DNA of 64,000 bases, from the IMG/VR virus record IMGVR_UViG_3300042291_000844, positions 96,001 to 160,000 of that record; one strand, given 5' to 3'. Origin of the DNA: a virus. Its lineage: Duplodnaviria > Caudoviricetes. The position numbers and the translations under genes are program-made. The notes under the pieces were generated by a model that saw only the letters and a list, made by a program, of their open reading frames with translations, did no database searches and was not told the origin of the DNA. Below, piece by piece: positions 21,095-46,894 of the stretch (the stretch's first letter is position 1; every line of letters begins with the position of its first letter).

Positions 21095-22810
21095 CTATTT
21101 TATTTTTTTCTTAACGATATAGTTGTTAAGAACTAACGTATCCATATCACAATCTAAAAACGTATCTATTGCATCTTTAGGGGTGTTTACAATGGTCTTA
21201 TCTTTAACATTGAATGATGTATTCAAAACGATTGGATACCCATTATCTTGTTCTAATTGCATAAGCAAGGAATATACTCTACGATGTTGTTTAAAATTTA
21301 AAGTTTGTATTCTTGCAGAACCATCTATATGTGTAATAGCAGGTAGATTTTTTATATGTTCCTCTTTTACTTGAACTACCTGATTCATATAAGGAACTAA
21401 TGGTTTGTAATCAAAGTATTTTAACCTGTCTTCCTCTTTTACAATCGGAGCGAATGGTCTAAATCCTTCTCTTTTTTTAATTACCTTATTTACCCTTGCT
21501 TTCATTTGAGGGTCTCGCGGGTTAGCAAATATAGAACGATTACCGAGTGCTCTTGAACCAAATTCCATTCTACCCTCGTACCAACCGATAACGTTACCAT
21601 TTGTAATTTCTCTAGAAATAGTTTTAACAATCTGCGAATGATTCTTAAATTCATACCATACTTCATTTTCATAGTTTTTTAATTCAGTTTCAATTTCATC
21701 ATTAGTATTAAACGTACCTAAATACGGATTTGTATTTGCAACTCTAACGGCAGATTCGTTATGGGTATAATAGTAATGTAATGCACACCCAATAGCAGAA
21801 CCTGCATCAGATGGAGCAGGTGGAATCCACAATTGCTTATAACCAGTATTTTTTAGAATCTTACCATTTGCAGTTCCGTTATATGCACAGCCACCACTTA
21901 GGCACAAATTATTTGTTGCCCTAATAGCAAACATTTTATTTAATAATCTAAAAAATAGAAATTCGTATTGATGTTGAATTGTTGCTGCTAAATCTTTATG
22001 TTCTTGTGTTAATTCATCCTCTGGTAATCTATTCGGAAGTTCAAACAACTCCGCTAATTTTTCATTAAACATTGAATTGTTTGAATAATCATATGTAAAA
22101 TAATTCATATTGATTTCAAACCCACCATCTTCCGTTAATTTATATAATTGCTTAAATTTATTTAAATACGTTTCTGACTTGCCATATGGTGCTAATCCCA
22201 TTACTTTATACTCACCTTCATTTGGTTTAAATCCTAAGAAAGCGGTCATTGCAGAGTATAACATTCCTAATGAATGTGGGAATTTAATATTTTGTAATTT
22301 TGTAATATTCTTACCTTCTGCAAATGCTAAAACAGTAGTTTCCCATTCACCCACCCCATCTACTGATAATATGGTTGCCCTTTCAAATGGAGATGTATAA
22401 TAAGAATATGCTATATGTGATAGATGATGGTCACCATATGCTAAGATTATATTTGGATTTGTAATCTCATATATTTTAGATTCAATTTCTTTGGCTTGTG
22501 CTTTATTTGAATCAATAATAGATTTTCGTTTAAAGAAATTAACCAATCCACCTCGTTTAGTAGATTCTTCAATTCTCTCTAATTTTAATTTAGGGTTTTC
22601 GTAAAAGGTAACAACTGATATATCATTACCTGTTATTTTATTATCCTTATACAACCAATTAATAGCATTAGTTGGAAACGTAGCATCGTGTTTTACTCCT
22701 GTAAAACGTTCTTCCTCCATTGCACCGATAACTACTCCATCTAATATTAATGCTGCTGAGGAATCGTGATAACCACATGCTATACCTAAAATATATTTTT
22801 TATTCATCAT
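21095..22810 (-). CDS. carbamoyltransferase (NodU/CmcH/TobZ family)
   Basis: YHDSSAA, EEERF, HHLSH, DGVGE, EGEYKVMGLAPYG, GPR-like FGSRALGNRS, LNTSFN. Confidence 0.95.
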   Translation of the reverse strand: MMNKKYILGIACGYHDSSAALILDGVVIGAMEEERFTGVKHDATFPTNAINWLYKDNKITGNDISVVTFYENPKLKLERIEESTKRGGLVNFFKRKSIIDSNKAQAKEIESKIYEITNPNIILAYGDHHLSHIAYSYYTSPFERATILSVDGVGEWETTVLAFAEGKNITKLQNIKFPHSLGMLYSAMTAFLGFKPNEGEYKVMGLAPYGKSETYLNKFKQLYKLTEDGGFEINMNYFTYDYSNNSMFNEKLAELFELPNRLPEDELTQEHKDLAATIQHQYEFLFFRLLNKMFAIRATNNLCLSGGCAYNGTANGKILKNTGYKQLWIPPAPSDAGSAIGCALHYYYTHNESAVRVANTNPYLGTFNTNDEIETELKNYENEVWYEFKNHSQIVKTISREITNGNVIGWYEGRMEFGSRALGNRSIFANPRDPQMKARVNKVIKKREGFRPFAPIVKEEDRLKYFDYKPLVPYMNQVVQVKEEHIKNLPAITHIDGSARIQTLNFKQHRRVYSLLMQLEQDNGYPIVLNTSFNVKDKTIVNTPKDAIDTFLDCDMDTLVLNNYIVKKKIK

Positions 22811-24327: not shown

Positions 24328-25323
24328 TTAGTTTCTATTTATTTTTTTTGTAATATCTCTTGTATAATTGTTATCGTGAAAAAATTCATCAAATAGTGAA
24401 TCATTTTTTATATACCCATCCTTACACATTAAATCAAACATATAATCTGGTAATGTCTTAGAAATCCAATCATTTGATACATCATTAGAATCAAACATAT
24501 CTAACACAAATTTTTTAATTCCATTTACTATTTCAATTTTTTTATCAAAATAAATTTGATTCTCACTTGGGTCTTCATTTATAAACTCACCATTAATAAT
24601 ATCAATATAGGTGCCAACTTTATCAGTTAATACTGATTCTAAAAATATTATATTATCTTTTAATTTATGAGTTTCAAAATCATAAAATCCTTTAACATCT
24701 TCTAATAAGGGATTTCCTTTATAAGTAATATACCTACCTTTAAATTTTAATCCATATGCTTTTTCTATATTGTATTGTGTTGTTCCTTGATAACCAGTAT
24801 CAACCATCAATACATTTTTAGAATCTCCAATAACTTCCGTTATATATTTTTTATACTCATCTCGTGTTATTTTAGATTTTTGTATTATTTCTTTTAAATA
24901 CAAATCTAAATTTGGTAATGTCTCATTACTATCTACTATTACATCGTTTTCAATAATTGGACTTATGCCAAATCTACGTTTTAATAAATTAGATAGTTTT
25001 CCATTATATCGATGTAAATCAAAAGTTCTAAATATATCAGTAGTATTAAAAATTGAAACTATTGTTGATAATGTACGAGATGTTTTAAAATATACTGATT
25101 GTGGTAAATTATATTTCTCTCTAAATAATTCGTAGATTTCTTGTAAAAATAATCCTTCTCTTGAATTAAAAAGAATTTTGTCAGAATCACCTATTTCGGT
25201 TTTTAACCAATCAAAATAATTGAATAACAATGGGCCGTAGTAAATGTATCCTAAATCTTCTAATGAGGTTATACTTATCCAATCTCCTCTATCTAATAAT
25301 AATTTAGTTTGATGGCTTATCAT
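24328..25323 (-). CDS. HAD-associated domain protein of the type found in polysaccharide biosynthesis loci
   Basis: YYGPLL..YF.WL, LFNSREG.FL, SR, VDTGYQGTTQ motifs. Confidence 0.55.
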   Translation of the reverse strand: MISHQTKLLLDRGDWISITSLEDLGYIYYGPLLFNYFDWLKTEIGDSDKILFNSREGLFLQEIYELFREKYNLPQSVYFKTSRTLSTIVSIFNTTDIFRTFDLHRYNGKLSNLLKRRFGISPIIENDVIVDSNETLPNLDLYLKEIIQKSKITRDEYKKYITEVIGDSKNVLMVDTGYQGTTQYNIEKAYGLKFKGRYITYKGNPLLEDVKGFYDFETHKLKDNIIFLESVLTDKVGTYIDIINGEFINEDPSENQIYFDKKIEIVNGIKKFVLDMFDSNDVSNDWISKTLPDYMFDLMCKDGYIKNDSLFDEFFHDNNYTRDITKKINRN

Positions 25324-25760
25324 TGTATTCCTATTACTTTAAATGATGGTATACCTAATTCAACCCACATATCTATTATTCGCTCATCATCATCATACGC
25401 ACAAAAAACGTTTTCTTTAATTTCAGTTTCATATATTTTTCTTTTAAAATCAGGTGCTTTTAAAAAATTATTTTCCCAACTTCTCATATATAATTTATCA
25501 TATGATATATCGTACTTTTGTAACCACTCTTTAGTAACCTTTCTAGTGGATTCAGGTCGACCTGTTAATATAATAACTTCAACCCCATTTTCTTTATAGT
25601 TCTTTGCCAATTCAATCATTGGTAAATTAGGTTCATCCATTATCATAGTTTTAGATGAATGGACAATATCCCAATCTAATTTTCCGTTTTCTTTCTTTGC
25701 TAATTCAAATCGTTTATTACTTAAAGACAAAGTATTATCTATATCAATTATTACTATCAT
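25320..25760 (-). CDS. HAD phosphatase, T4 PNK 3'-phosphatase-like
   Basis: DIDNTL (motif I), LTGRP, LYMR, YDDD. Confidence 0.8.
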   Translation of the reverse strand: MIVIIDIDNTLSLSNKRFELAKKENGKLDWDIVHSSKTMIMDEPNLPMIELAKNYKENGVEVIILTGRPESTRKVTKEWLQKYDISYDKLYMRSWENNFLKAPDFKRKIYETEIKENVFCAYDDDERIIDMWVELGIPSFKVIGIQ

Positions 25761-26956
25761 AATTCTCTTAAACCTTGTTTTTCATAACTTACAGGTACTT
25801 TGATTCCGGTATTACATCCATTACAATTATCACAAAATGTAATATATCCTAAATCGGTATAACCTAAATCAAATTTAATTAACTCTTCATTTGATATTTC
25901 ATTTAAAGTAACAAAATCATTATCACTTAAAGGGAATAAGTTTGTTCTTACTGCTGAGGTATTAAGATGACAATAATAAAACTTACCATCATTCAATCCT
26001 CTAAATGGTGCAGTACAACTATCAAAGTGTTTAATTAGTTTATCTATTTCTAAATTCTTTTTAACTCTTAAATCTCCAAAATCATACCATTCTATTTCAT
26101 TTCTAACATAATGTTTAATGTCATAATTTTTATATTCCTCAATAGTACGCATAACTTTATTTTTAAGTTTAGGTAATTTATCTGAATAATTACTTATACT
26201 TAAAATAACATCACTATCTTTTAATAATTCTAGAGTACTTTCTTTTGGAATAACTGTACCATTAGTAGTGATTATAAATTTATCTAATTTATCTATATGA
26301 TTTAATAAAATATGTTGGATTATATTTTCAATATCTGGATGTAGGAATGGTTCTCCGCCAACTAAATGAAACACACTTACAAAATCTACAACTTTAAAAT
26401 ATGAATCTATATCAGTTATAATAGTTGATAAATTTCTATGATTTGGGTTATCATAATGTGGTATAAACATATTACAATGTGAACACGCTAAGTTACATCT
26501 TTCAGTTACCAATACATCCGTTTGAAATATATGAACTAAATTCTTATGCATTAACGGCCAAATTCCTGCTATGTGTTTGTATGTAGTATGGGTTACATTA
26601 CATTCATCCAAATACTTTGTATATCGTTGTCTATATTCATCCGTTGTAATAATAACCTTTTCATCGCCTTTAAATTCATCAATATGAATTAATTTTATAT
26701 TCCTTCTATCACTTTTATAATATTTGGCTTCTCGATAATAAGAACTTATTTCATTTAAATTATTTATAATCGTACTATTTTTTACATCGTGGTCAACAAT
26801 ATATTTTATTTTTAATGCACCACTCCCAAACAAAAAATCTATACTTCTAATAAATTGGACACACTCTTTACTTGCACCAAATAAAACATATTCAGTTTCG
26901 ATATCCCAATTAGATATAAATTGTTTAAAATTATGTAATTCTGGATTATAAATCAT
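25757..26956 (-). CDS. radical SAM protein with N-terminal Rossmann-like region
   Basis: CNLACSHC; GGEPFLHP; TNG; C-terminal CxxC.C. Confidence 0.9.
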   Translation of the reverse strand: MIYNPELHNFKQFISNWDIETEYVLFGASKECVQFIRSIDFLFGSGALKIKYIVDHDVKNSTIINNLNEISSYYREAKYYKSDRRNIKLIHIDEFKGDEKVIITTDEYRQRYTKYLDECNVTHTTYKHIAGIWPLMHKNLVHIFQTDVLVTERCNLACSHCNMFIPHYDNPNHRNLSTIITDIDSYFKVVDFVSVFHLVGGEPFLHPDIENIIQHILLNHIDKLDKFIITTNGTVIPKESTLELLKDSDVILSISNYSDKLPKLKNKVMRTIEEYKNYDIKHYVRNEIEWYDFGDLRVKKNLEIDKLIKHFDSCTAPFRGLNDGKFYYCHLNTSAVRTNLFPLSDNDFVTLNEISNEELIKFDLGYTDLGYITFCDNCNGCNTGIKVPVSYEKQGLREL

Positions 26957-26963
26957 AATTTAC

Positions 26964-27581
26964 TTATAGGATTTTTCCTCCTTGTTCAATTAAACTTTGT
27001 GCTTTTTTATACTTTACAAATTCAGTAGTACCATCTTTTAATTGTACCATCACCATCTCATTTCTACCATAAGTTTTTGGTGCAATATAAGTTGTTGAAT
27101 ATCTACGATTTGGATTTGTAATTAGAATTCCATTTAGGTGGTCAATTTCATGTTGTGCAACAACACATTCCATTAATCCTAAATCATTAAAAAATTCTTC
27201 GGAATCTTTCCAATCACCTAATTCATTATCAGGAGAAAATACAACCGTCCCTAAATTATCACATTCGACTGTAATCTTCTTTGCACGGATTGTTTTAACA
27301 GGACTCTTCATTGTTTTATCAATTGACAAACATTGTTCTACATACGCAACTGAATCCTGTGAGTATTCTACAATTTTTGGGTTGATTAATACTAATGGGT
27401 CTTTTACATTAATTATACATGCTCTAACATCTAATCCTAATTGATTAGCGGATAAACCAATACCACCGAACTTAACTAATCCACTTGCTAATATAGTGGA
27501 AATTGATTCAATATCGGCAGGTGTGAATTTTGTTTCACTAATTGGTTTTGATAATTTTAATTTGTCTTTTACTATGTTCAT
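26964..27581 (-). CDS. def: peptide deformylase
   Basis: GIGLSANQ, EQCLS, QHEIDHLNG. Confidence 0.95.
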   Translation of the reverse strand: MNIVKDKLKLSKPISETKFTPADIESISTILASGLVKFGGIGLSANQLGLDVRACIINVKDPLVLINPKIVEYSQDSVAYVEQCLSIDKTMKSPVKTIRAKKITVECDNLGTVVFSPDNELGDWKDSEEFFNDLGLMECVVAQHEIDHLNGILITNPNRRYSTTYIAPKTYGRNEMVMVQLKDGTTEFVKYKKAQSLIEQGGKIL

Positions 27582-36737: not shown

Positions 36738-37382
36738 TTATATTAGGGATTTTGAAAATGGAATGGTATTACTTTCATTTTTAATAAATTCTGAGTAGGG
36801 TTTCCAATCTATTCCCCTTTGAATGTATTGTAACTCTGCATTACATCTACTTTCAATATCAACATTACTTATATCTATTGTTTTAGAATAGTGTCCGGTC
36901 ATCCACCAAAAATTACCAGAGTACATTATATTTGTAGGATTACTTACTGTTTCTAATAAAACACCATAGGTATTAAACGTATTGCTATTTAAAACATTAA
37001 ATACATTATCAATATACTGAATATTGTATAATTGCATCACATTTCTCCATCGGATGGATTCGGAATCCATTTGTTTGGTTACTCCCTTTGTGTGTAGGTA
37101 AAAAATATAATCATTATTATTAAATGATTGTTTATCTTTTTCTATTAAATTTAATGTTACAAATTCATTACCCATTAATTTAATATCACCAATTATAATT
37201 TTTGAATCATATTCATAAATTAATTTGATTATATCATCTACTGAATTATTATTTTCTGATATTGAGATACCAATAGTTAATGAGTATGGTTGATTAATAT
37301 ATTTTTTTATTAATGCAAGTTGTTCATGTATTATAGATTCAACCCCCTCTATTGCATAGATGTGATAATATATCCGTATCAT
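36738..37382 (-). CDS. putative glycosyltransferase-like protein
   Basis: RIYYHI, E..TL, FYLHTKG, YSGNFWW motifs; ends KSLI. Confidence 0.55.
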   Translation of the reverse strand: MIRIYYHIYAIEGVESIIHEQLALIKKYINQPYSLTIGISISENNNSVDDIIKLIYEYDSKIIIGDIKLMGNEFVTLNLIEKDKQSFNNNDYIFYLHTKGVTKQMDSESIRWRNVMQLYNIQYIDNVFNVLNSNTFNTYGVLLETVSNPTNIMYSGNFWWMTGHYSKTIDISNVDIESRCNAELQYIQRGIDWKPYSEFIKNESNTIPFSKSLI

Positions 37383-38425
37383 ATTAAATTCGTATGGGTA
37401 GTATCAATAAATTCGTATAGGTTATGAAATAGATTTGTATTTCTACCTATCTTATTAAATTCTTTTTTAAATAATTCATGTTCTGGGTGATTAGAATCCC
37501 AAACTTGTTTTAATTTAAATTCCGCTTCAGAAAATGTTCCCCAATTAGTTATTTTACCAAAAAAAACATTTACCTTTTTGCCAAAAATAGAATACATTAT
37601 ATTATAAAAGGTTTCCATTTCCATATAGTTACTATCTTGAACAACAAACGAAGTTTTTACCCATTGTAGTGTTTTTATTGTAGAAATAAAATTTAAATTA
37701 TTTATTAAGGTATCCCATTTACCACCCAATCTTGTTTTGTTTTCATATGTATCACGTGTTCCCGCATCTATTGATATTTCGCAACTTGTTACATACTTAT
37801 GAACATTTGGCATACTATCCCACATTTCCTTTGTCCACATTGAGGCATTAGTATGTAAATGTATTCTTGTTAGTTTTGGATATTTTTTTGGATTAAAATT
37901 TTTTAAATAATTTCTAAACCCAACCGAAACGAATGGGTCACCCGTACCTGTAATATATAAAGTTTTTACGTTTGCTGAATAATGGGTATCAATTTCATCT
38001 ATTGTTTTTTCAATTCGTTCTATGCCTTTACTACTTTCAACAATTAAATCTACCCTACACGATGGACATTTATAATTACAAGTCCTATCAAAATTCATTA
38101 AAATTCTGGTCGGTGTAGTCGGTTCAACAATTGGAGTTGTATACTTTGAATTTGATTTTAATGTAATTGGACCGGATACATCTCCATATTTTAATAATCT
38201 ACTTAAATATGGACACAATTCTTTGTTACAATATTTAAACGAACCATCTAAAATAGAATTTCTAATATCTAAAATAGGTTCACTATTAAAAGCATCTTTT
38301 AATGGAATTTCATTAAGTTTAATTTCGTTTGGTAACCACGATGGACAACAAACAAAACCAACATTATTATGTATTTCTAATGATGTAAACGGAACACTAC
38401 AACTATATTGTTTTAAATCTATCAC
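37379..38425 (-). CDS. radical SAM protein with N-terminal auxiliary Cys cluster
   Basis: C..PF...CC; CNYKCPSC; GDPF; ends TNLI; GTG start. Confidence 0.9.
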   Translation of the reverse strand: MIDLKQYSCSVPFTSLEIHNNVGFVCCPSWLPNEIKLNEIPLKDAFNSEPILDIRNSILDGSFKYCNKELCPYLSRLLKYGDVSGPITLKSNSKYTTPIVEPTTPTRILMNFDRTCNYKCPSCRVDLIVESSKGIERIEKTIDEIDTHYSANVKTLYITGTGDPFVSVGFRNYLKNFNPKKYPKLTRIHLHTNASMWTKEMWDSMPNVHKYVTSCEISIDAGTRDTYENKTRLGGKWDTLINNLNFISTIKTLQWVKTSFVVQDSNYMEMETFYNIMYSIFGKKVNVFFGKITNWGTFSEAEFKLKQVWDSNHPEHELFKKEFNKIGRNTNLFHNLYEFIDTTHTNLI

Positions 38426-39078
38426 TATATCAATCCATTTATTTTTTTATCTAATCTTACTTTTTTGTAAGGCGAATTAATCCATTCATCAATACAAAAT
38501 TGATTATATTTTATCTTACAATATTCATTTAAACGTTTTATCGTTTCAATATCTTTATCAACAAATATATCTTCATAATAAAATAATGGGTATCCTTTAT
38601 TCGAGATAGATTTCAGAATCAGAGATTGGGATTCTAAATGACTAGTTAATCCTACTATATGATGTTCATCTAATTCATTTAAATCATAATACTTAGGTTT
38701 ATGCCAGTATGGAGAAACTGTTCTATTTTTTGATAATCTAATATGATAAACCAACGATTCGGCTTGTAATCGTTTATCCTTTCTTTCTAATACTATTATT
38801 TTATCAAAAAAAGAATAGAACCAATCCCAATATTCTTCTACATTTTTAAAAGATTCATATGGATAATTATCACTATCTATAAATGTTTTTAATAATACAT
38901 TTTTTTTATTTGTTATAGTATCATATGTTTTTAGTTTGTCGTCTCTATCCGGATTTATAAAATTAAATGGTTCAAAAAAAGTATTATATTTTTTGTGTTC
39001 TTTAGTTAAACAACAATTTAAATAATAAAATATTGAGGTGGAGCCACTCCTACCATTACACACAATTGCAATCCTCAT
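38425..39078 (-). CDS. sulfotransferase-like (Stf0/P-loop)
   Basis: GRSGSTS PAPS-binding loop; L.R.D...Q..S; YED; ends NGLI. Confidence 0.75.
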   Translation of the reverse strand: MRIAIVCNGRSGSTSIFYYLNCCLTKEHKKYNTFFEPFNFINPDRDDKLKTYDTITNKKNVLLKTFIDSDNYPYESFKNVEEYWDWFYSFFDKIIVLERKDKRLQAESLVYHIRLSKNRTVSPYWHKPKYYDLNELDEHHIVGLTSHLESQSLILKSISNKGYPLFYYEDIFVDKDIETIKRLNEYCKIKYNQFCIDEWINSPYKKVRLDKKINGLI

Positions 39079-39593
39079 ATAATATTAAATTTTGACTGTT
39101 TTTTTGAAAACCATATAACTAAAACATCTCTCTTACCTGATGTTACTTTTTTAATTTCATGTATATCTTTTCCACCATTAAATACAACATAATCTCCTTC
39201 ATTTTTTAACGATACGCTTTCATCATTTATATACATTTCGCCACCTGTAAAATCGGATGACAATAAAATACTGACGGTCTTGTGTGTTGTAAATCTATCT
39301 TTATGTTTTTTAGCATAACCATTTTCACCATATATTAATCTATGCATTATGTATAAATTATCAATAGGTTCTTCAAATTTATTACAAATAAATTTATTTA
39401 AATTTTTATTTTCTAAAGTATAAACCCAACTATTATCTGGAAAAAGAGAGACACCATCATCTTTTTTAAGATGTGTGGCAAAATATAATTGAGGATGGGA
39501 TGCTTTTATATATGCTAAATCATCTTCATTCATTATTCGGGTAGTATCTAATTCAGATTTTAAAAAACCTAAATCATCGATTGATAGTTTCAT
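39075..39593 (-). CDS. 2OG-Fe(II) oxygenase
   Basis: H.D (KHKD), GGE, HE+..V..G.R; ends FNII. Confidence 0.85.
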   Translation of the reverse strand: MKLSIDDLGFLKSELDTTRIMNEDDLAYIKASHPQLYFATHLKKDDGVSLFPDNSWVYTLENKNLNKFICNKFEEPIDNLYIMHRLIYGENGYAKKHKDRFTTHKTVSILLSSDFTGGEMYINDESVSLKNEGDYVVFNGGKDIHEIKKVTSGKRDVLVIWFSKKQSKFNII

Positions 39594-40222
39594 ATGATTT
39601 TATTTATTTTATTCTTAAATTCTACAATTGGTTCATCTACATTTAAAAATTTATGTAATTTAATATAAAAATCATAACAACCTCGTGCACCAGGATGCCA
39701 ATCTATTACATCGCCACCTTCATCTGCAATAGAAGTTACTTTTATTAATTCTACAAACTTTTTTGTTTTTTCATAAAAATCATCGTTCCAGGTCACAAAA
39801 ATTGGTTCATATTTTTTATAAAAATATTTTAATTTTTTAATAAATAATATTTCAGAATCCCTATCCCCATTATACCAATGTTCAGTTTCTTTGACCCTTA
39901 GTTCTAATAGTTTTTTAGCAAACGATTTATCACTATACCATTCCCAATTTAAATATTTTAAGTTGTGATTTGTATCTCTTTCCCCAAAATATCTTCGTGG
40001 GAATCTACCGGGTGCAGTAAAGACTATAACTAATCTATCACCTTCTACATAATTTGGTATATTTCCAGTTTGATATAATATAGAATTATTATCAGACCCA
40101 AATTTTCCCAATTTAATAATATTATAATGATTAGATAAATAGTCTGTCCAGTGTGTTTCTGGTAAATCCCAATCTACAAAACTATCACCACAAATGTATA
40201 TGTTATTTTTTTTGGTTAACAT
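39590..40222 (-). CDS. SGNH/GDSL-like hydrolase or acyltransferase
   Basis: GDSF block I, N, DWHP block V; ends NKII. Confidence 0.7.
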   Translation of the reverse strand: MLTKKNNIYICGDSFVDWDLPETHWTDYLSNHYNIIKLGKFGSDNNSILYQTGNIPNYVEGDRLVIVFTAPGRFPRRYFGERDTNHNLKYLNWEWYSDKSFAKKLLELRVKETEHWYNGDRDSEILFIKKLKYFYKKYEPIFVTWNDDFYEKTKKFVELIKVTSIADEGGDVIDWHPGARGCYDFYIKLHKFLNVDEPIVEFKNKINKII

Positions 40223-40788
40223 TATATAATAGTTTTATTTGATTTTAATTTAGGATAATCAAAATCAGTTTCTGTCATCCAAATATTTAATGCGTACCTT
40301 ATCCCGTTGGTTACCGGTAAAACCCCATGGTATGTATCAGACCCATTAAATGAAATACTATCACCTAATTTTAAATCACACAATGTCAGACCAGTTAGTG
40401 TTTCAAAATCATAAGGAGGATTCACATCTTCAGTTAAAGCAAATTGTCCACCGATAAAATTATCAGAAAGAACAATTACTGTAGTTAATTCGCTTGATTT
40501 ATCCTTATGTAGATTAAGATATCTACCATCATAATATGAAGTTAGACTGATATTAAAATTCTTTAAATTAAATGATAGGTAATCAAACCATAATTTAAAG
40601 TTTCCGTTTTTATAATTATCGGTTAATAAATTAATTATTCTTTTTTTAAATTCTTCATCATACATTCTTCTACAATCCCAATGTTCGGTTGAACTATATG
40701 AAAAGGGTTCACCAAATTTAAGACAAAAATTAATTATATCGTTGGCGGTTTCTCTATTACAAAAATTATTATTTATGGTATAATTCAT
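40222..40788 (-). CDS. 2OG-Fe(II) oxygenase
   Basis: LHKD, GGQF, HGV.PV..G.RY; ends KTII. Confidence 0.85.
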   Translation of the reverse strand: MNYTINNNFCNRETANDIINFCLKFGEPFSYSSTEHWDCRRMYDEEFKKRIINLLTDNYKNGNFKLWFDYLSFNLKNFNISLTSYYDGRYLNLHKDKSSELTTVIVLSDNFIGGQFALTEDVNPPYDFETLTGLTLCDLKLGDSISFNGSDTYHGVLPVTNGIRYALNIWMTETDFDYPKLKSNKTII

Positions 40789-41606
40789 AATAGATGTGAT
40801 TTTTTTGGTTTATTATATACTAATAAATTGCCGTTATTTATAAATTTATATAATTCATCGGCAATTAATTTATATCCATTATTGCTTGGATGTTTACCTG
40901 CTGTAGTACTTATCCAATTATTACCATCCTCCCATACATCTTTTCTATTAGTATCAATTAATAAGTTTGCCATTGTTTTATTTTGATAACCCCAATATTT
41001 ATCACTCTCTATTAAATCGGTTTTATCAACTAACTTATGGATATTTCTATTAATCATTATATCAAACGCGTCACAAAAAAGATATCTGATTCCTAATTCT
41101 TTAAATATAAATTGAAGATGTAAAATATAGTTTTGATTCACTATATCATAGTAAGTATCATTGAATAAATTACCTATGTAATAATCTCTAAAATTTTTCT
41201 CCGCCCTATTATAGTTTATATTATCACTATTAACTCCATCAAAAATATATTTTAAAAGGTGTTCTTTACTTTTATATCGTTTGCCCCAAATAAAAAAATC
41301 ATCTTCAGTAGGGAAAAAAGGTAATGAATCCCGTAAAGATGATGACCACATAATAACAACAAAATCATCTTGAGTGATGATTTCGTTTTTTAATTGATAC
41401 GATACTGCGTTAAATATTGCATTATTTGAAAATGCCCCAACTCCATTATTTTTAACTTCACATTTTAATAGTTCTGATAAGTGTTTAGGCCAACAATATT
41501 TTTGTCTTATTAGTGTTCTTTGTTCAAAATCATCCGTACTATATTCATCTTCAACATTTCCACCAACCCCCTCAGTCCAACTATCTCCAAATGTAAACAA
41601 TTTCAT
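40785..41606 (-). CDS. SGNH/GDSL-like hydrolase or acyltransferase
   Basis: GDSWTEG, SN..I, HPS..GY..IA; ends SHLL. Confidence 0.75.
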   Translation of the reverse strand: MKLFTFGDSWTEGVGGNVEDEYSTDDFEQRTLIRQKYCWPKHLSELLKCEVKNNGVGAFSNNAIFNAVSYQLKNEIITQDDFVVIMWSSSLRDSLPFFPTEDDFFIWGKRYKSKEHLLKYIFDGVNSDNINYNRAEKNFRDYYIGNLFNDTYYDIVNQNYILHLQFIFKELGIRYLFCDAFDIMINRNIHKLVDKTDLIESDKYWGYQNKTMANLLIDTNRKDVWEDGNNWISTTAGKHPSNNGYKLIADELYKFINNGNLLVYNKPKKSHLL

Positions 41607-41617
41607 AATGCATAATA

Positions 41618-41761
41618 TTAAAGATGTGTTTCTTTAATTTTAGCTACAAGTTCTTGAAATGCAGTTGATATTTTTGTTTTTACAACGGTCGATAATGGAG
41701 CAATAACTGTCTTAATAACTGTTAATGGTCTTTCTTCTCTAATTTTTGGTGTCTTTGCCAT
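41618..41761 (-). CDS. 47-aa basic peptide (MAKTPKIREERPLTVIKTVIAPLSTVVKTKISTAFQELVAKIKETHL)
   Basis: Translated by hand; directly downstream of the ATP-grasp-Hint gene. Confidence 0.6.
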   Translation of the reverse strand: MAKTPKIREERPLTVIKTVIAPLSTVVKTKISTAFQELVAKIKETHL

Positions 41762-41796
41762 AATATTTTTTTATTTTAATTTAAATTATATACTAA

Positions 41797-43287
41797 TTAT
41801 AGTTTGGGTGGTGGTATTCCCTGGTCACAGGTTGGACAAAAAGGAGCACAACCATACCCACCACAATAATAAGAACCACAACCCCAACAACTATTATGCA
41901 TTACACTAAATATTCCATCTCCAATATCCACTAAGAATAAATCGCCGGGTGCAAAATCTAATGAATATATTGTTTTGTATTCAAACACCATTTCTAAATT
42001 TGTAATTGTAATTGTTGTTAATTCATTTGTATTTATATCAGTTACAACTAATTTATCTCCAACATATAAACTATTTACTTTTTCAAATCTAGTTGCGGTT
42101 GAATCTTTTTCTTCAATATAATATGTACATCCAGGTGCATCTGTCCAAGTTTTACCATCTTCTAATGTTATTTTTATCATAATCACTTCTGCCGATTGCG
42201 ATACCATACCTATTAATTCAGATTGTAATGATGTTAATGTATCATTTGATTGTTGTAACGTACTATCCCAACCATATGTCACAATTTCATTTGTAAAAGA
42301 TTTAGCTTCATTTTCATTTGAATCTACAAAATTTATAGAACGAATATAATCGCCTAATTGTATGGTGGTAACATTTGTTAATGTACCATCGTAGTTTAAG
42401 ATATTTGAATCATCATCGGTATGATAATCACTCTCAGTTTTACCTATTTCTTTTGTAATATATTTATATCTTGTTTTTTGATTTAATTTTTTGGTGCCAG
42501 TAACAAATTCATCAGCGGTAAACGAAATCGGTATTATTGAAGATTGTGTGTATCCACCCATATTAATAATATCTAAATTTGAACCATATATAATATCAAT
42601 TCCTCTTATAATTGAGTATCTACCGTCTACCAAATTATCTTCTGAAAATATAAATTCTTGAATTAAATAATTACTTTCAGCTGAGTTTATTGTATCATTT
42701 AATTCAGTATTATTTGAAACTGTATATAATGCGGGGTATTGTGTTCCATCATATTGGGGATAACGATACTTTATTAATAGGTTTGGATTTGTAGTAGTGG
42801 TATAATCTACTTCATCTAATGTATTTAAATTTAACGTATCAGATGTATACTTTGTTTTTGGAATATACTCTGAATCTTTCATTAAATTAAAAAATTCAAA
42901 TTTATCAGCACAATACGTTTCATCTACTAATGCAGTTGTATCAAATGCTTGTCTTAAAATAAATTTAGTATCAGTATCTTCTATAAATGGTACAGTAACC
43001 GAACCCGCTGGTACAATATGGCCAGTATACGTTATATTATTTTCTGCACATTTTTCTTGTAATATTTGTAGAAATCTATGTGGTTGATTTAATGGTTTGA
43101 ACGCATCACCTTCCGTCCATATATAATGGAACTCAGTAATATTATTAGCATTTAACATATCAAATAACGTAGTGTAATCTAATAAATCAGCACCCTCATT
43201 ATAAATTGTGGTATTTGTATTTATTTCTAAAAACTTAACCGAACCATTTTTTTGTAGATAATCACTACCAATTATTGTTGCTTTCAT
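41797..43287 (-). CDS. permuted ATP-grasp-like domain + Hint domain + C-terminal six-Cys peptide
   Basis: N-terminal D...FLEINTN then DK, PKT, K, LIQEFI; Hint blocks (ILNYDG...IQLGD; VNSLYVGD; IYSLDF...MHN); tail SCWGCGSYYCGGYGCAPFCPTCDQGIPPPKL. Confidence 0.7.
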   Translation of the reverse strand: MKATIIGSDYLQKNGSVKFLEINTNTTIYNEGADLLDYTTLFDMLNANNITEFHYIWTEGDAFKPLNQPHRFLQILQEKCAENNITYTGHIVPAGSVTVPFIEDTDTKFILRQAFDTTALVDETYCADKFEFFNLMKDSEYIPKTKYTSDTLNLNTLDEVDYTTTTNPNLLIKYRYPQYDGTQYPALYTVSNNTELNDTINSAESNYLIQEFIFSEDNLVDGRYSIIRGIDIIYGSNLDIINMGGYTQSSIIPISFTADEFVTGTKKLNQKTRYKYITKEIGKTESDYHTDDDSNILNYDGTLTNVTTIQLGDYIRSINFVDSNENEAKSFTNEIVTYGWDSTLQQSNDTLTSLQSELIGMVSQSAEVIMIKITLEDGKTWTDAPGCTYYIEEKDSTATRFEKVNSLYVGDKLVVTDINTNELTTITITNLEMVFEYKTIYSLDFAPGDLFLVDIGDGIFSVMHNSCWGCGSYYCGGYGCAPFCPTCDQGIPPPKL

Positions 43288-43347
43288 AAATGTTTATTTT
43301 TTTCTGGATGTACCTATAAATATATTAAAATTGAATTTAAGACCATT

Positions 43348-43650
43348 TTAAATAATACTAGGATTTTTTTTAATTTCAAGTGGTTCTAAATAATTAGAAT
43401 CAACTTCATTCCATTTTTTTAATCCACATGCATTATAAGTTGTTGAAAATACTTTTTTATTCAATGGACACCCACATTCACCACAATACGCACTCCATTT
43501 TAATCCTTTTATTACTTCTTTTCTATAATCACACCCTAAACAAACATCAAGTCTTAATTTAGCTAATTCCTCTTGTTTTGGTGTGGGGTTTAAAGAAATT
43601 TTCCAAGCATCAAATATTTCTTTATAATTAATTATAGGTTTAGGTATCAT
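43348..43650 (-). CDS. small Zn-binding protein, DUF6171-like
   Basis: RL.VC..C...C..CGC...K...C...KW; ends PSII. Confidence 0.7.
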   Translation of the reverse strand: MIPKPIINYKEIFDAWKISLNPTPKQEELAKLRLDVCLGCDYRKEVIKGLKWSAYCGECGCPLNKKVFSTTYNACGLKKWNEVDSNYLEPLEIKKNPSII

Positions 43651-43651
43651 A

Positions 43652-44389
43652 TTATATTAATGTTTTATTATTTTTTTGAATATCGTAATAATCATAAATA
43701 TCATTATATTTTTTGATGAAATCATCATTCATTTTTAAATTACAATCAAAATGTTGACTTCCATTTAAGTTTTCCATTTTAAATGGTTTATCTGTTTTAT
43801 TAGATACCCATTCCTCTAATTCTGTAAAATTTCCAAATTCAAACCATTTTATTTTTGGGTTATTATTATGCCAAAATGATATTGGCCTGAATAATATTAA
43901 TAACATATTTTCCAGATAATCGTCCAAATACTTTTGAATTCCATTTCTTTTTGCAAATTCTTTAATTACTAAAATTTGAGAAGTTAGTGATATTAAATCT
44001 AAATCTTTAAAAAATAATATATCATCCATATTTAATTTTTTTAGTATATTTACTAATTCGTTTGGATATTTTAGATGTTCCATTTCGACCATATCAATTA
44101 TATGTTTCCATAATGAAATAAATCGTTCATATCTATTTCGTTTAATTGTTATGATATCATACTCATTCCCAAATTTTAATAGTAATAAATCTAATCTTTC
44201 GTGAAGATGTACCATATTATCTGCGAGCGATTCATTACTCAAAGTTAAATTAATGGGTATATGGTAATTATCTACAAATGATTGGTCAAAATGTTCAATT
44301 TTAAATCCACTTCTTAAACATGATATATAAAATGAAGTGGATGCACATCTTGGTAATGATATAAATAAAAATTTATTCTCTACTAACAC
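43652..44389 (-). CDS. sulfotransferase-like protein
   Basis: FISLPRCASTS PAPS loop; RN.YERFIS.W; ends KTLI. Confidence 0.75.
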   Translation of the reverse strand: MLVENKFLFISLPRCASTSFYISCLRSGFKIEHFDQSFVDNYHIPINLTLSNESLADNMVHLHERLDLLLLKFGNEYDIITIKRNRYERFISLWKHIIDMVEMEHLKYPNELVNILKKLNMDDILFFKDLDLISLTSQILVIKEFAKRNGIQKYLDDYLENMLLILFRPISFWHNNNPKIKWFEFGNFTELEEWVSNKTDKPFKMENLNGSQHFDCNLKMNDDFIKKYNDIYDYYDIQKNNKTLI

Positions 44390-45027
44390 TATATTAACGA
44401 TTTTTGGTTTTTAATAAAATCAAATCCAACATTACCTGCCATAACAATTCTATCTAAGGTTGATTCCGATGCACTATGTGGTGAATGGGGCATATCTGCC
44501 TCCATTATAATTAAATCATCTTCTTCCGGCATTATCCAATATTCCGTATTATCTTTTCCTTTAAAACATAATACCCCATCATCACCATTCATTACATCTG
44601 GCATTTGAATATAATAAACGTATGTATAATGTGGAATAAAGTCTTTATTTTTTTTATTAATTTCAGTATGTATATGATATTTTTCATCATTATAAAACTC
44701 TTCTTGTACTGGATTTTTAGAACGAACAACGTTGACCCAAGCATCTGTATTAATCTTATTATAATTTATACCGGTTTCATTATAAATTTCTTTACATTTA
44801 TTAATACCAATTTGAATTATTTCATCTAATTTTGTTTCTACCTTAATATCACCAATAAAATTTAAATGTTCATTCCATTCTTTTTTATAACCAAACCCAT
44901 CAGTTTTAACATTAGGCTGGGATTCTATAATAGAATATGCCTCTTTTAAAAACAATTGTTTATCACTTATTCGATTTAATTTTACTTTCCAAATATAAGT
45001 TGTCTCATCAAAAAATATCTTTTCCAT
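44389..45027 (-). CDS. putative 2OG-Fe(II) oxygenase (TIGR02466-like)
   Basis: AWVN, H.H, YVYY+.MP, H, R+V.AGN; ends KSLI. Confidence 0.75.
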   Translation of the reverse strand: MEKIFFDETTYIWKVKLNRISDKQLFLKEAYSIIESQPNVKTDGFGYKKEWNEHLNFIGDIKVETKLDEIIQIGINKCKEIYNETGINYNKINTDAWVNVVRSKNPVQEEFYNDEKYHIHTEINKKNKDFIPHYTYVYYIQMPDVMNGDDGVLCFKGKDNTEYWIMPEEDDLIIMEADMPHSPHSASESTLDRIVMAGNVGFDFIKNQKSLI

Positions 45028-45033
45028 AATTTT

Positions 45034-45639
45034 TTATATTAAAGTAGTTTGGGTTTTAAGGTATTTTTTATTTATATCTAAAAAATAAAAATTAGAACAA
45101 AACACAATCCGTTCAGTATTTGAGTTTATATTAGTTTCTGCACGATGTAACAAATTTGCATCAAATATTAATAAATCACCTACGTTTGGTAAGATTGAAA
45201 ATTCTTCGCCATTTTCATCTTTAAATATTAAATGTCCTTCTTTGTCATTTAAATTATTTGGCATTTTACTATAATAAGTTAATGTATAATCTGGTGTTTG
45301 TTTTATAAAACTTGTTGATATTTTTGAATTATGTCTATGAAAACCGGAATAACTATTATTATTTTTACTAATAAAAATCCATTCATTTGTATTATAAAAA
45401 AATGGTTTGTTAACTAAGTAAAACATAGAGTCTATGATATTCTGTCTAACAATATTTATATTTTTAGAATTTACTTGCACATACGATTGTATACCAGGTG
45501 TTTCTGGGGTTGGGTGACTTACATTCTGACTAATTTCAATAGAATACCATAATTCTTTTGATAATTGTTCATTATCTATTCCTTCTATGCGTTTTCTATA
45601 TATAATTATATTTTCACCTAATTTTATTTCCTCTAACAT
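45034..45639 (-). CDS. putative 2OG-Fe(II) oxygenase (TIGR02466-like)
   Basis: FH.H, TYY..MP, GDLLIF...L.H, RI...N; ends TTLI. Confidence 0.75.
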   Translation of the reverse strand: MLEEIKLGENIIIYRKRIEGIDNEQLSKELWYSIEISQNVSHPTPETPGIQSYVQVNSKNINIVRQNIIDSMFYLVNKPFFYNTNEWIFISKNNNSYSGFHRHNSKISTSFIKQTPDYTLTYYSKMPNNLNDKEGHLIFKDENGEEFSILPNVGDLLIFDANLLHRAETNINSNTERIVFCSNFYFLDINKKYLKTQTTLI

Positions 45640-45645
45640 ATTATA

Positions 45646-46281
45646 TTAATTTAGTTTTTTATAAAATATATCAGCTAATTCTTTATGACCTACTTCAGAA
45701 AAATGGGCATCGTTAATTACGCCATTAGTTTCATCTTGTAATCTATTTAATAAAGTTCCCACATACCAATCTGTTGGTAGTAATTGTTTTTTAAGATGAA
45801 CATCAGTACATAAAGCAAAGGGTGACCAAAAAATAACTTTAATGCCTTTTAATTTAAATATAGTACTAAGTAATTTAGACCAATTAACTATTTCATCCCA
45901 ATATAACCTACTCATTCTATTAATCCGAATTTGCTCTAATGTATTGATATCGATAAATTTATACGATTCTAACTCTGAAACTGAATTTCTGATAGTACTC
46001 CATTTATTATTTTTTTCTAACCTAAAACGAGATGGTTCTGTCCAACCTATAATAACAATATCTCTAGTATTGATAGAATCTATGTTAGTAATGATAGACT
46101 CAAAGATAGTATTATTATCAACACCCCCATTACCACATTGGTTAACTTCCATATCTAGCATTGTAGATAGGTAGTGAGAAAATATTTTTGGTTGATATCC
46201 TTTGTATTCTTTATATTTAATACCCAATCCATACATCTTTTCCCATGTTGTAGAAAACGAATCACCAAATACCCAAATCAT
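45646..46281 (-). CDS. SGNH/GDSL-like hydrolase or acyltransferase
   Basis: VFGDSFS, DN.TI, D.HFS..GH..LA. Confidence 0.75.
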   Translation of the reverse strand: MIWVFGDSFSTTWEKMYGLGIKYKEYKGYQPKIFSHYLSTMLDMEVNQCGNGGVDNNTIFESIITNIDSINTRDIVIIGWTEPSRFRLEKNNKWSTIRNSVSELESYKFIDINTLEQIRINRMSRLYWDEIVNWSKLLSTIFKLKGIKVIFWSPFALCTDVHLKKQLLPTDWYVGTLLNRLQDETNGVINDAHFSEVGHKELADIFYKKLN

Positions 46282-46841
46282 AAAAGATTTTGTTTTGTTG
46301 AATTTGTTTTAACTAATGACACCCAATTTACTAATGAATACCTAATCCCATTCACTACTGGCGTTACTCTATGCAGTAATCTTGAATTAAAAATATATAA
46401 TGTCCCAATTTTATTTTCTATTGGTACAATCTCACCTTTAATGTTTTTTATTTCTAATAGACCGCCTTCGTATGCATTGTTTAACTGAATTACTATTGAT
46501 GTAAATCTATTTCTATATATGGTACCAGTACTATCGGTATGCCAATCAAAGTACTCACCTTCTTTATACTCAGTAAATTGAAATGGTCCAAGTCCCGTAA
46601 CTTCCATACCATTTATATTAAAGGTTTTTCTTAATTTATTTGTTAATCTGTCATTTAAAAATTCTAAATTAGATATCCAGCCAATCGATGATTTTCTATT
46701 TGTTTTATTATGTGGAGTATTAGAATCATCACCATATACTTTAGCATCTGATAATGATAATTCATTTTTACATTTGTTTAAAAGCAACTCACACTCTTCG
46801 GGTGATAGGAAATTTTCAAATATGTCTATATTGTCAATCAT
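46278..46841 (-). CDS. 2OG-Fe(II) oxygenase, prolyl-hydroxylase-like (start moved to MIDNIDIF)
   Basis: WHTD, YEGG.L, LHRVTPV..G.RYS; ends QNLL. Confidence 0.9.
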   Translation of the reverse strand: MIDNIDIFENFLSPEECELLLNKCKNELSLSDAKVYGDDSNTPHNKTNRKSSIGWISNLEFLNDRLTNKLRKTFNINGMEVTGLGPFQFTEYKEGEYFDWHTDSTGTIYRNRFTSIVIQLNNAYEGGLLEIKNIKGEIVPIENKIGTLYIFNSRLLHRVTPVVNGIRYSLVNWVSLVKTNSTKQNLL

Positions 46842-46862
46842 ATATATAAATATATAAATAAT

Positions 46863-46894
46863 AAAAAAAAGGGTCACCGAAATTGATGACCCTT
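46863..46894 (-). terminator. intrinsic terminator after hsp20
   Basis: AAGGGTCA/TGACCCTT stem plus T-tract. Confidence 0.75.

Follow-up and report, generated by a model that had tools for sequence, protein, structure and literature searches.

An island of enzymes with a shared C-terminal tag around an ATP-grasp-like/Hint protein in uncultivated jumbo phages

On what substrate do the enzymes act that are encoded side by side in a tight gene block of an uncultivated phage? We address this question for a 64,000-nucleotide stretch of a Caudoviricetes virus from lake water (positions 96,001 to 160,000 of IMG/VR record IMGVR_UViG_3300042291_000844; hereafter "the window"), in which all genes lie on the minus strand and the G+C content is about 30%. 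Positions 36738-46877 contain 14 open reading frames (ORFs) of at least 100 aa. The original prediction read this block as a tailoring cluster with a single substrate, most simply a peptide released by the Hint domain of one of its proteins. We find that positions 36738-46860 are one copy of a modular island carried as a unit by uncultivated jumbo phages. In this island, a protein composed of an ATP-grasp-like domain and a Hint domain (hereafter the anchor) is surrounded by enzymes sharing a two-residue C-terminus. Our preferred reading, to which we would give roughly an even chance, is a protein-anchored tailoring system resembling those of peptides that are made by the ribosome and modified after translation (RiPPs), with the shared C-terminus serving as a recruitment handle.

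Of the 14 island proteins, 12 have the C-terminus [LI][LI] (two residues, each leucine or isoleucine), compared with 5 of the 65 other minus-strand ORFs of the window; about 3% would be expected from composition. The ends of the enzymes follow the pattern [ST/KN]-[LI]-[LI]-COOH almost throughout. The features of the island, in the direction of transcription, are as follows.

46869..46894, minus strand: intrinsic terminator-like hairpin with a T-run after the upstream Hsp20 gene; the island's upstream edge.
46845..46860, minus strand: two tandem TATTTATA promoter motifs, 3 and 11 nt ahead of the ATG at 46841.
46278..46841, minus strand: Ox1, 2-oxoglutarate (2OG)-Fe(II) oxygenase, prolyl 4-hydroxylase-like, ends NLL (PF13640, E = 7.6e-14; orthologue family 81/81 tagged).
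45646..46281, minus strand: SG1, SGNH-type, ends YKKLN as written (profile alignment, conserved blocks).
45034..45639, minus strand: Ox2, 2OG-Fe(II) oxygenase, ends TLI (PF13759, E = 2e-6).
44389..45027, minus strand: Ox3, 2OG-Fe(II) oxygenase-like, ends SLI (PF13640, E = 8.2e-5, 23.9 bits, under the Pfam cut-off).
43652..44389, minus strand: ST2, putative sulfotransferase fold, PRCASTS loop at residues 13-19, ends TLI (co-occurs with Cys-rich tails).
43348..43650, minus strand: Zn, 100 aa, six invariant Cys (CxxC...CxxCxC...C), ends SII.
43315..43322, minus strand: TATTTATA promoter motif, 27 nt ahead of the Hint gene start.
42424..43287, minus strand: Hint protein residues 1-288, divergent ATP-grasp-like domain (E21, N23, R112, D122 and R228 invariant).
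41893..42423, minus strand: Hint protein residues 289-465, Hint fold, His289 at intein position 1, terminal His464-Asn465.
41797..41892, minus strand: Hint protein residues 466-496 and stop; 31-aa tail with six Cys, rich in Tyr, Gly and Pro, ends PPPKL.
41618..41761, minus strand: s47, 47 aa, Lys-rich, no Cys, ends KETHL (tblastn conservation).
40785..41606, minus strand: SG2, SGNH/GDSL-like, ends HLL (weak GDSL matches, profile alignment).
40222..40788, minus strand: Ox4, 2OG-Fe(II) oxygenase, ends TII (PF13640, E = 3.3e-7).
39590..40222, minus strand: SG3, SGNH-type (GDS ... DWHP), ends KII (profile alignment).
39075..39593, minus strand: Ox5, 2OG-Fe(II) oxygenase, ends NII (PF13640, E = 1.7e-6).
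38425..39078, minus strand: ST1, sulfotransferase-like, GRSGSTS loop, ends GLI (weak profile matches).
37379..38425, minus strand: radical S-adenosylmethionine (SAM) enzyme, CNYKCPSC, twitch-domain type, ends NLI (PF04055, NF033640).
36738..37382, minus strand: A214, last island gene, ends SLI (no profile match; present in 5 loci only).

The two untagged members are SG1 and the Hint protein itself. In SG1, one additional A in the A6 run at 45655-45660 would give the end ...YKKTKLI before a stop codon (...KTKLI), which points to a tag masked by a frameshift or by a sequencing error in the homopolymer, and away from a truly untagged protein. For comparison we used about 290 metagenomic phage loci from IMG/VR, falling into three clades, in which an ATP-grasp-like/Hint gene lies beside changeable enzyme sets; clade A comprises the 80 loci whose Hint protein is 57-84% identical to that of the window. 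Across these relatives the tag is an all-or-none property of orthologue families: it is present in 81/81, 79/79, 77/77, 73/73, 60/60 and 38/38 members of six families, and in 0/80, 0/39 and 0/38 members of the Hint gene and flanking families. A complete 288.7-kb relative has 21 tagged ORFs out of 380, eight of them inside its 8-kb island, the rest being at about chance level. The codons of the tag vary synonymously (TTA, TTG, CTA and CTT for leucine; ATA, ATT and ATC for isoleucine), and the tag is kept whether neighbouring genes overlap (ATGA or TAATG) or are separated by short gaps or by more than 60 nt, and also at terminal genes. Synonymous variation together with conservation at all junction types indicates that the tag is selected at the protein level. 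The same observations (the longer gaps, the TAATG overlaps, the terminal genes and the synonymous codons) led us to reject the tag as a DNA-level by-product of overlapping ATGA junctions. We also rejected the notion that it is a general trait of phage oxygenase arrays, as it is absent from the oxygenases of the cyanophage that we checked. The tag may be a recruitment or docking handle bringing the enzymes to the anchor.

The original prediction tied these enzymes to the ATP-grasp-Hint gene, and the set is indeed almost never found away from it. All 80 loci seeded with the Hint protein carry an enzyme set. Seeding with the six-Cys protein (Zn) yielded 70 new loci, all 70 with a Hint gene, and seeding with ST2 yielded 64 new loci, 59 of them with a Hint gene. 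In three loci, a lone tagged ST2 has SbcCD-like and primase genes as neighbours, and the 6 kb around it contain no Hint gene; the remainder are cut by contig ends. In two loci with a lone tagged ST2 (L191 and L203), the ST2 follows an SbcCD-like fusion and primase, and about 5 kb downstream of it (L191:7000-12700, L203:7000-12200) are almost free of ORFs longer than 60 aa on both strands. The complete 288-kb relatives have one Hint gene each, located inside their only tagged cluster. The clade-A loci share a recurrent gene order, Ox1 ... Ox3 - ST2 - Zn - Hint - s47 - (SG2) - Ox4 - (ST1) - (radical SAM), while other genes come and go. In three loci (L064, L074, L075) the entire island has the opposite orientation with respect to unchanged flanking genes, and in others (L002, L003, L054-L057) it lies on the opposite side of the HD/Hsp20 gene pair; the island thus behaves as a cassette. 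The predicted tight coupling of the operons was likewise confirmed, and extends to a conserved, movable module.

These data bear on the possibility that the [LI][LI] end is a handling signal, such as a degron or packaging signal, unrelated to any shared substrate, the enzymes forming a toolkit for take-over or defence, each with host targets of its own, and Hint being a merely linked neighbour. The great variation of enzyme content among close relatives, and the lone tagged ST2 near replication genes in L191 and L203, would fit such a signal. Against it, Hint adjoins tagged enzymes in three clades that share only about 25-30% identity, the island moves as a single unit, and the one Hint copy of each complete genome sits inside the only tagged cluster. 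We regard this explanation as very unlikely.

The anchor (41797-43287) is 496 aa long. Its residues 289-465 form a Hint beta-fold. A histidine (His289), invariant in 48 close relatives, occupies the first Hint position, where a cysteine or serine nucleophile is expected; the domain is therefore neither a splicing intein nor a Hedgehog-type transferase. H464-N465 is invariant in clade A, and of 68 diverse relatives at least 90% retain HN. From these residues we predict that the Hint domain is able to cut at its C-terminal asparagine only. In the N-terminal 288 residues, E21, N23, R112, D122 and R228 are invariant across the 68 diverse members of the family. Foldseek matches this part to YjfC and YgiC of E. 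coli with E-values of 1e-4 and TM-scores of only 0.26/0.32. The RimK profile matched 2 of the 68 members (E = 0.055, weak), and the region of the ExN motif matched biotin carboxylase weakly (E = 1.4). No Pfam model matched the window's protein. The best, though weak, structural and profile leads are thus the ATP-grasp C-terminal ligases YgiC/YjfC and RimK, and the anchor family has an invariant E-x-N motif; in contrast to those enzymes, it has this motif at the N-terminus, as in a permuted version of the fold, and the similarity is marginal. YgiC and YjfC are peptide-spermidine ligases according to a statement in a later paper (Pederick et al. 2023, as cited in PMC12568646).

What follows the terminal HN takes four forms. 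The first is a tail of 20-66 aa rich in Cys, Trp, Tyr and Gly, which in the window is 31 aa long with six Cys. In the second, the Cys-rich tail is followed by a second complete Hint domain starting with CFxAGT. In the third, found in some relatives including L094, it is followed by a domain with an SDxRLKxNI signature, recognized by eye, which we take to be that of a tail-fibre intramolecular chaperone. In the fourth there is no tail, only one or two more Hint domains ending with HNK. Relatives of the last kind (L238-L317, e.g. L240:10001-12265) are 600-910 aa long, with two or three tandem Hints straight after Hint1, namely a PT-HINT and then an intein splicing domain, with nothing between them to splice or release. 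Within clade A the tail is less conserved than the domains (consensus fraction 0.55 against 0.75), and across the family its length and pattern are hypervariable. A search of 1.84 billion representative proteins gave 275 clusters related to the anchor. No relative was found among one genome each of 185,579 prokaryote species, nor any homologue of the ATP-grasp/Hint protein in 50,697 cultured phage records; the six-Cys protein and ST2 were not found in cultured phages either, and megablast of the island gave no match.

The clades differ in what they keep. Clade C (the "IEHN" group) comprises 58 distinct loci, all with Cys-rich tails, arranged as Hint - Zn - ST2 - tagged enzymes. In the 56 distinct loci of clade B, Hint1 is followed by 0-12 residues and then by more Hints, with no Cys-rich tail. 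Clade B keeps the 47-aa gene and runs of tagged oxygenase, ST1, radical SAM, SGNH and methyltransferase genes; of its 56 loci, none has ST2, one has a halogenase and six have a short untagged Cys protein. The six-Cys protein always adjoins the Hint gene in the tail-bearing clades. ST2 and/or this Cys protein are present in 80/80 clade-A loci, in 55/58 of clade C and in L094, a locus with a Hint protein about 28% identical to that of the window, a chaperone-type end and the order APS (adenosine 5'-phosphosulfate) kinase - transferase - DUF2061 - Zn - Hint - ST2. ST2 and the Cys protein thus go with the tail, and the remaining toolbox goes with the ATP-grasp/Hint body. Some genomes have a second, shorter (about 77-80 aa), untagged six-Cys paralogue (L055:3840-4058, L043:18258-18467). 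The 47-codon ORF at 41618-41761, between the Hint gene and SG2, was overlooked by the original prediction. It is conserved: s47 has a tblastn match in 79/80 clade-A loci, and an ORF of 44-50 aa ending KH[LSM] follows the Hint gene in at least 34 of the 56 clade-B loci.

The position of this small protein, with its fixed C-terminus, directly after the Hint gene in clades A and B raises the possibility of a carrier-borne small-molecule synthesis. The ATP-grasp domain would attach an amino acid or amine to the C-terminus of a carrier (the 47-aa protein with its invariant KHL, or the end of the anchor), the tagged enzymes would tailor the attached group, and the product would then be released. Such a scheme resembles the LysW/LysX amino-group carrier pathways and the scaffold-peptide (pearlin) pathways. 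It fits the nearest structural relatives of the N-terminal domain, which ligate peptide C-termini to amines. A halogenase, several oxygenases, a methyltransferase and a sulfotransferase would suit products derived from amino acids, and clade B would need no Cys-rich tail. However, clade C is devoid of the 47-aa gene, no release protease is seen, and the scheme gives no reason for the Hint domain or the hypervariable Cys-rich tail. We consider it distinctly unlikely.

The enzyme pool of the relatives is wider than that of the window. Tagged families that the window lacks include a methyltransferase, additional oxygenases, a GDSL protein, several unassigned proteins and, in 38 loci, a flavin-dependent Trp halogenase (PF04820, E = 1e-88). 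The predicted lack of PAPS (3'-phosphoadenosine 5'-phosphosulfate) synthesis genes in the window was borne out: tblastn with the relatives' APS kinase and Pfam searches on further ORFs of the window found none. In all five large relatives searched, an APS kinase scores above the Pfam cut-off; 28 loci of clade A, 36 of clade C and 13 of clade B have such a gene on the strand of the Hint gene and 0.9-6.5 kb upstream of it. In the relatives the island is headed by this APS kinase (PF01583), followed by a cytidylyltransferase-like protein (HxGH, ISGTxIR) and a DUF2061 membrane protein; examples are L005:5997-6586, L043:5870-7151 and L094:8651-9664. The small nucleotidyltransferase of this module could be a minimal sulfate adenylyltransferase. 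The place of the module at the head of the island is good contextual support for sulfation as part of the system's chemistry. The tagged Trp halogenase, the methyltransferase and the APS-kinase module of the relatives make the predicted peptide-tailoring type of chemistry fit better than it did on the window's own genes.

The preferred reading, a RiPP-like system assembled on a protein anchor, may be spelled out as follows. The anchor would be the ~500-aa protein with its ATP-grasp-like ligase domain, its C-cleaving Hint domain and its variable tail rich in Cys and aromatic residues, around which changeable, late-expressed tailoring enzymes would gather; in the window these would be 2OG oxygenases of the prolyl-hydroxylase type, PAPS-type sulfotransferases, SGNH acyl hydrolases or transferases and a radical SAM enzyme. 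The [LI][LI]-COOH ends would dock the enzymes on the anchor, whose ATP-grasp-type domain would belong to a class that binds peptide C-termini. Docked enzymes would then modify ribosomally made substrates held at the anchor. Where a tail is present, asparagine cyclization at HN would free it without the help of a further protease for the leader. ST2 and the six-Cys protein would be devoted to the tail; the remaining enzymes would have a target that every clade possesses, be it the anchor or the 47-aa protein. Of the originally proposed single substrate, the Hint-released peptide, one part stands: the island is tied to Hint, and ST2 and the Cys protein track the tail. The other part does not, given that the tail-less clade B keeps most of the enzymes. 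Gene content and order, folds, tag and co-variation are what we observe; docking, cleavage, products and substrates belong to the interpretation.

Several observations weigh against this picture. As clade B retains most of the enzymes with no tail, a released peptide cannot be the substrate of the whole set; as clade C has no 47-aa gene, s47 cannot be a universal substrate. The ATP-grasp likeness of the N-terminal 288 residues is weak and tentative (TM-scores of about 0.3, no Pfam match). The residue after HN varies (S, G, T, A or P), so that cleavage must depend on asparagine cyclization alone. The co-variation of the tail with ST2 may go back to a single evolutionary event, and we therefore weighted it modestly. 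The presence of a halogenase shows no relation to the number of Trp residues in the tail (3.0 against 2.8); a dependence of the one on the other was rejected. The difference between CWCP and CWCS tails follows phylogeny. Finally, the late-type promoters of the island fit a decoration of the virion equally well.

These promoters carry the motif TATTTATA, as read along transcription on the minus strand, at 46845-46852, 46853-46860 and 43315-43322. The window contains 14 copies in this orientation, 12 of them intergenic, 3-40 nt ahead of a start codon, and the original placement of operon-heading motifs at 46845 and 43315 therefore holds. One copy (15979) heads the operon with a baseplate wedge gene, by which association the label "late-type" given to the two operons is a fair one. 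TATTTATA should not be taken for the T4 late motif, of which it is the reverse complement. A T4-type late promoter, TATAAATA along transcription, was rejected: copies in that orientation are mostly intragenic. Outside the island, TATTTATA sites on the minus strand have their first base at 544, 3698, 8857, 15979, 20023, 21057, 36685 and 54128; the motif, often extended to ATATTTATAGGT..ACAT, is a recurrent intergenic promoter motif of this phage. For Ox1 we prefer the ATG at 46841 over the listed GTG at 46877, because a gene starting at the latter would overrun the promoter, and the terminator at 46869-46894 precedes the motifs.

The promoter motif common to the island and the baseplate operon suits an explanation in which the new particles are decorated late in infection: the tagged enzymes would act on their structural proteins or surface glycans, and the Hint protein would itself be a component of the virion or fibre, with its Cys-rich end as an exposed, fast-evolving binding tip. 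The fibre-chaperone-like C-terminal domain behind the Cys-rich region in relatives such as L094, identified by eye, would agree with this, as would the related oxygenases of a cyanophage, located directly behind tail-fibre genes and a tail assembly chaperone. Bacterial operons of oxygenase, sulfotransferase and PAPS genes also adjoin phage tail-collar proteins (Iyer et al. 2010, PMC2938197). In the window, however, the island lies between Hsp20/HD genes on one side and a membrane protein gene on the other, with no structural genes adjoining it. An ATP-grasp-like domain with invariant catalytic-type residues would be odd in a fibre, Trp halogenases and radical SAM enzymes do not act on glycans, and the island-specific tag is left unexplained. 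Decoration of the virion appears unlikely to us.

The preferred, peptide-tailoring reading can be set beside known systems. In cyanophage arrays of the Syn9 gp49-58 type, up to ten unrelated dioxygenases occur with Trp halogenases, and in bacterial operons oxygenases of this sort are combined with sulfotransferases and PAPS synthetases; both were interpreted as serving the modification of peptides or secondary metabolism (Iyer, Abhiman, de Souza, Aravind 2010, PMC2938197). These arrays are the same kind of system and the closest precedent. The nearest cultured-phage relatives of Ox1 are cyanomyovirus oxygenases (about 30% identity), and the island is, like the cyanophage arrays, a phage-borne run of several unrelated 2OG oxygenases, joined in the relatives by a Trp halogenase. 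In contrast, the cyanophage enzymes that we checked are untagged and sit behind tail-fibre genes, and neither a Cys-rich tail nor a 47-aa gene has been described for these arrays. What is new here is the anchor, its variable Cys-rich tail, its 47-aa partner and the universal tag of the enzymes, none of which we found in cultured phages.

As in RiPP clusters, a variable C-terminal "core" rich in Cys and aromatic residues follows a conserved N-terminal part, and radical SAM enzymes, halogenases, oxygenases, methyltransferases and sulfotransferases are mixed and matched. The "leader" of the present system, however, is a 465-aa protein of two domains, to be removed by Hint self-cleavage rather than by a protease. 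Recognition would apparently be reversed, with the tag on the enzymes and no RiPP recognition element (RRE) domain detected, and clade B lacks any core peptide. The Hint-segment-Hint order of the longer relatives resembles the BUBL loci of Tetrahymena. In these BIL-Ubl-BIL loci (bacterial intein-like and ubiquitin-like domains), BIL2 passes the upstream domain to a lysine (PMC8616854). Unlike BUBL and the bacterial intein-like and pretoxin-HINT proteins, the window's protein carries neither a ubiquitin-like nor a toxin cargo, and its only Hint domain, which lacks an N-terminal nucleophile, is joined to an ATP-grasp-like domain within an enzyme island.

Phage oxygenase/halogenase arrays have stood unexplained in marine and freshwater phage genomes since about 2007-2010, with no substrate identified. 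The island offers candidates: a putatively self-cleaving anchor, a Cys-rich tail, a 47-aa partner and a two-residue mark by which the system's enzymes can be recognized in raw sequence. Should the tag prove to be a docking handle, it would represent a new, portable way of assembling tailoring enzymes on a substrate; if Hint releases the product, leader removal would be free of proteases. The several hundred related loci with differing enzyme sets form a natural library. A bolder version, which we consider improbable, is that a self-cleaving "leader protein" recruits an interchangeable toolbox through [LI][LI]-COOH, that its ligase domain caps the released six-Cys peptide or cyclizes it head to tail, and that the phage sets free at lysis a hydroxylated, sulfated, halogenated and knotted peptide similar to conotoxins or cyclotides. 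If true, this tool-side handle would be the reverse of leader-peptide/RRE recognition, and a new logic for making modified peptides.

Most of the enzyme identities originally assigned from the sequence are supported by profile searches. Four of the five 2OG-Fe(II) oxygenases exceed the Pfam gathering score; Ox3 (44389-45027) falls slightly below it (23.9 against 27 bits) and is present in 67 of the 80 clade-A loci. The radical SAM enzyme (37379-38425) has the CxxxCxxC motif, a PF04055 match below the cut-off (E = 3.4e-6, 27.8 bits) and a match over residues 8-303 to the NCBIfam model NF033640 for twitch-domain radical SAM proteins (E = 1.5e-15). The three SGNH-like proteins also hold up. G6, S8, G53, N56 and H193 are invariant in the alignment of SG1 with SG3 (the GDS-Ser, Gly, Asn and His blocks), SG2 aligns with SG1 at an hhalign probability of 99.4%, and SG3 also aligns by profile. 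The GDSL Pfam matches of SG2 are weak, and profile searches of SG1 and SG2 against PDB sequences gave nothing useful. The two proposed sulfotransferases stand as probable sulfotransferase-fold proteins, ST1 (38425-39078) on weak profile matches to the CurM (E = 0.026) and NodH (E = 0.12) sulfotransferases and on a weak profile link to ST2 (hhalign probability 77%). As for the supposed Zn finger (43348-43650), a protein with six invariant Cys is supported, but it matched no named family. The glycosyltransferase-like protein, presumably 36738-37382, found no support: this ORF has no match in Pfam (E-values up to 1), PHROGs or NCBIfam.

The gp6-like baseplate wedge protein and the helicase of the window are nearest to those of Cellulophaga phages phi17:2/phi4:1 and a crAss-like gut phage; these affinities place the window among the large phages of Bacteroidota-type hosts. 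Contigs with related loci reach 250-335 kb. A second radical SAM gene lies away from the island, at 25757-26956. Its best NCBIfam matches are ScmE, CcpM, PapB and WgkB, which are SPASM-type peptide maturases (E-values of 1e-9 to 4e-12, all below the cut-off). Its neighbours (26964-27581, 25320-25760 and 21095-22810) comprise a peptide deformylase, a HAD phosphatase and a NodU/CmcH-type carbamoyltransferase, and this region may be a second tailoring locus. In L094 a carbamoyltransferase gene is also found, 1.3 kb upstream of the Hint module.

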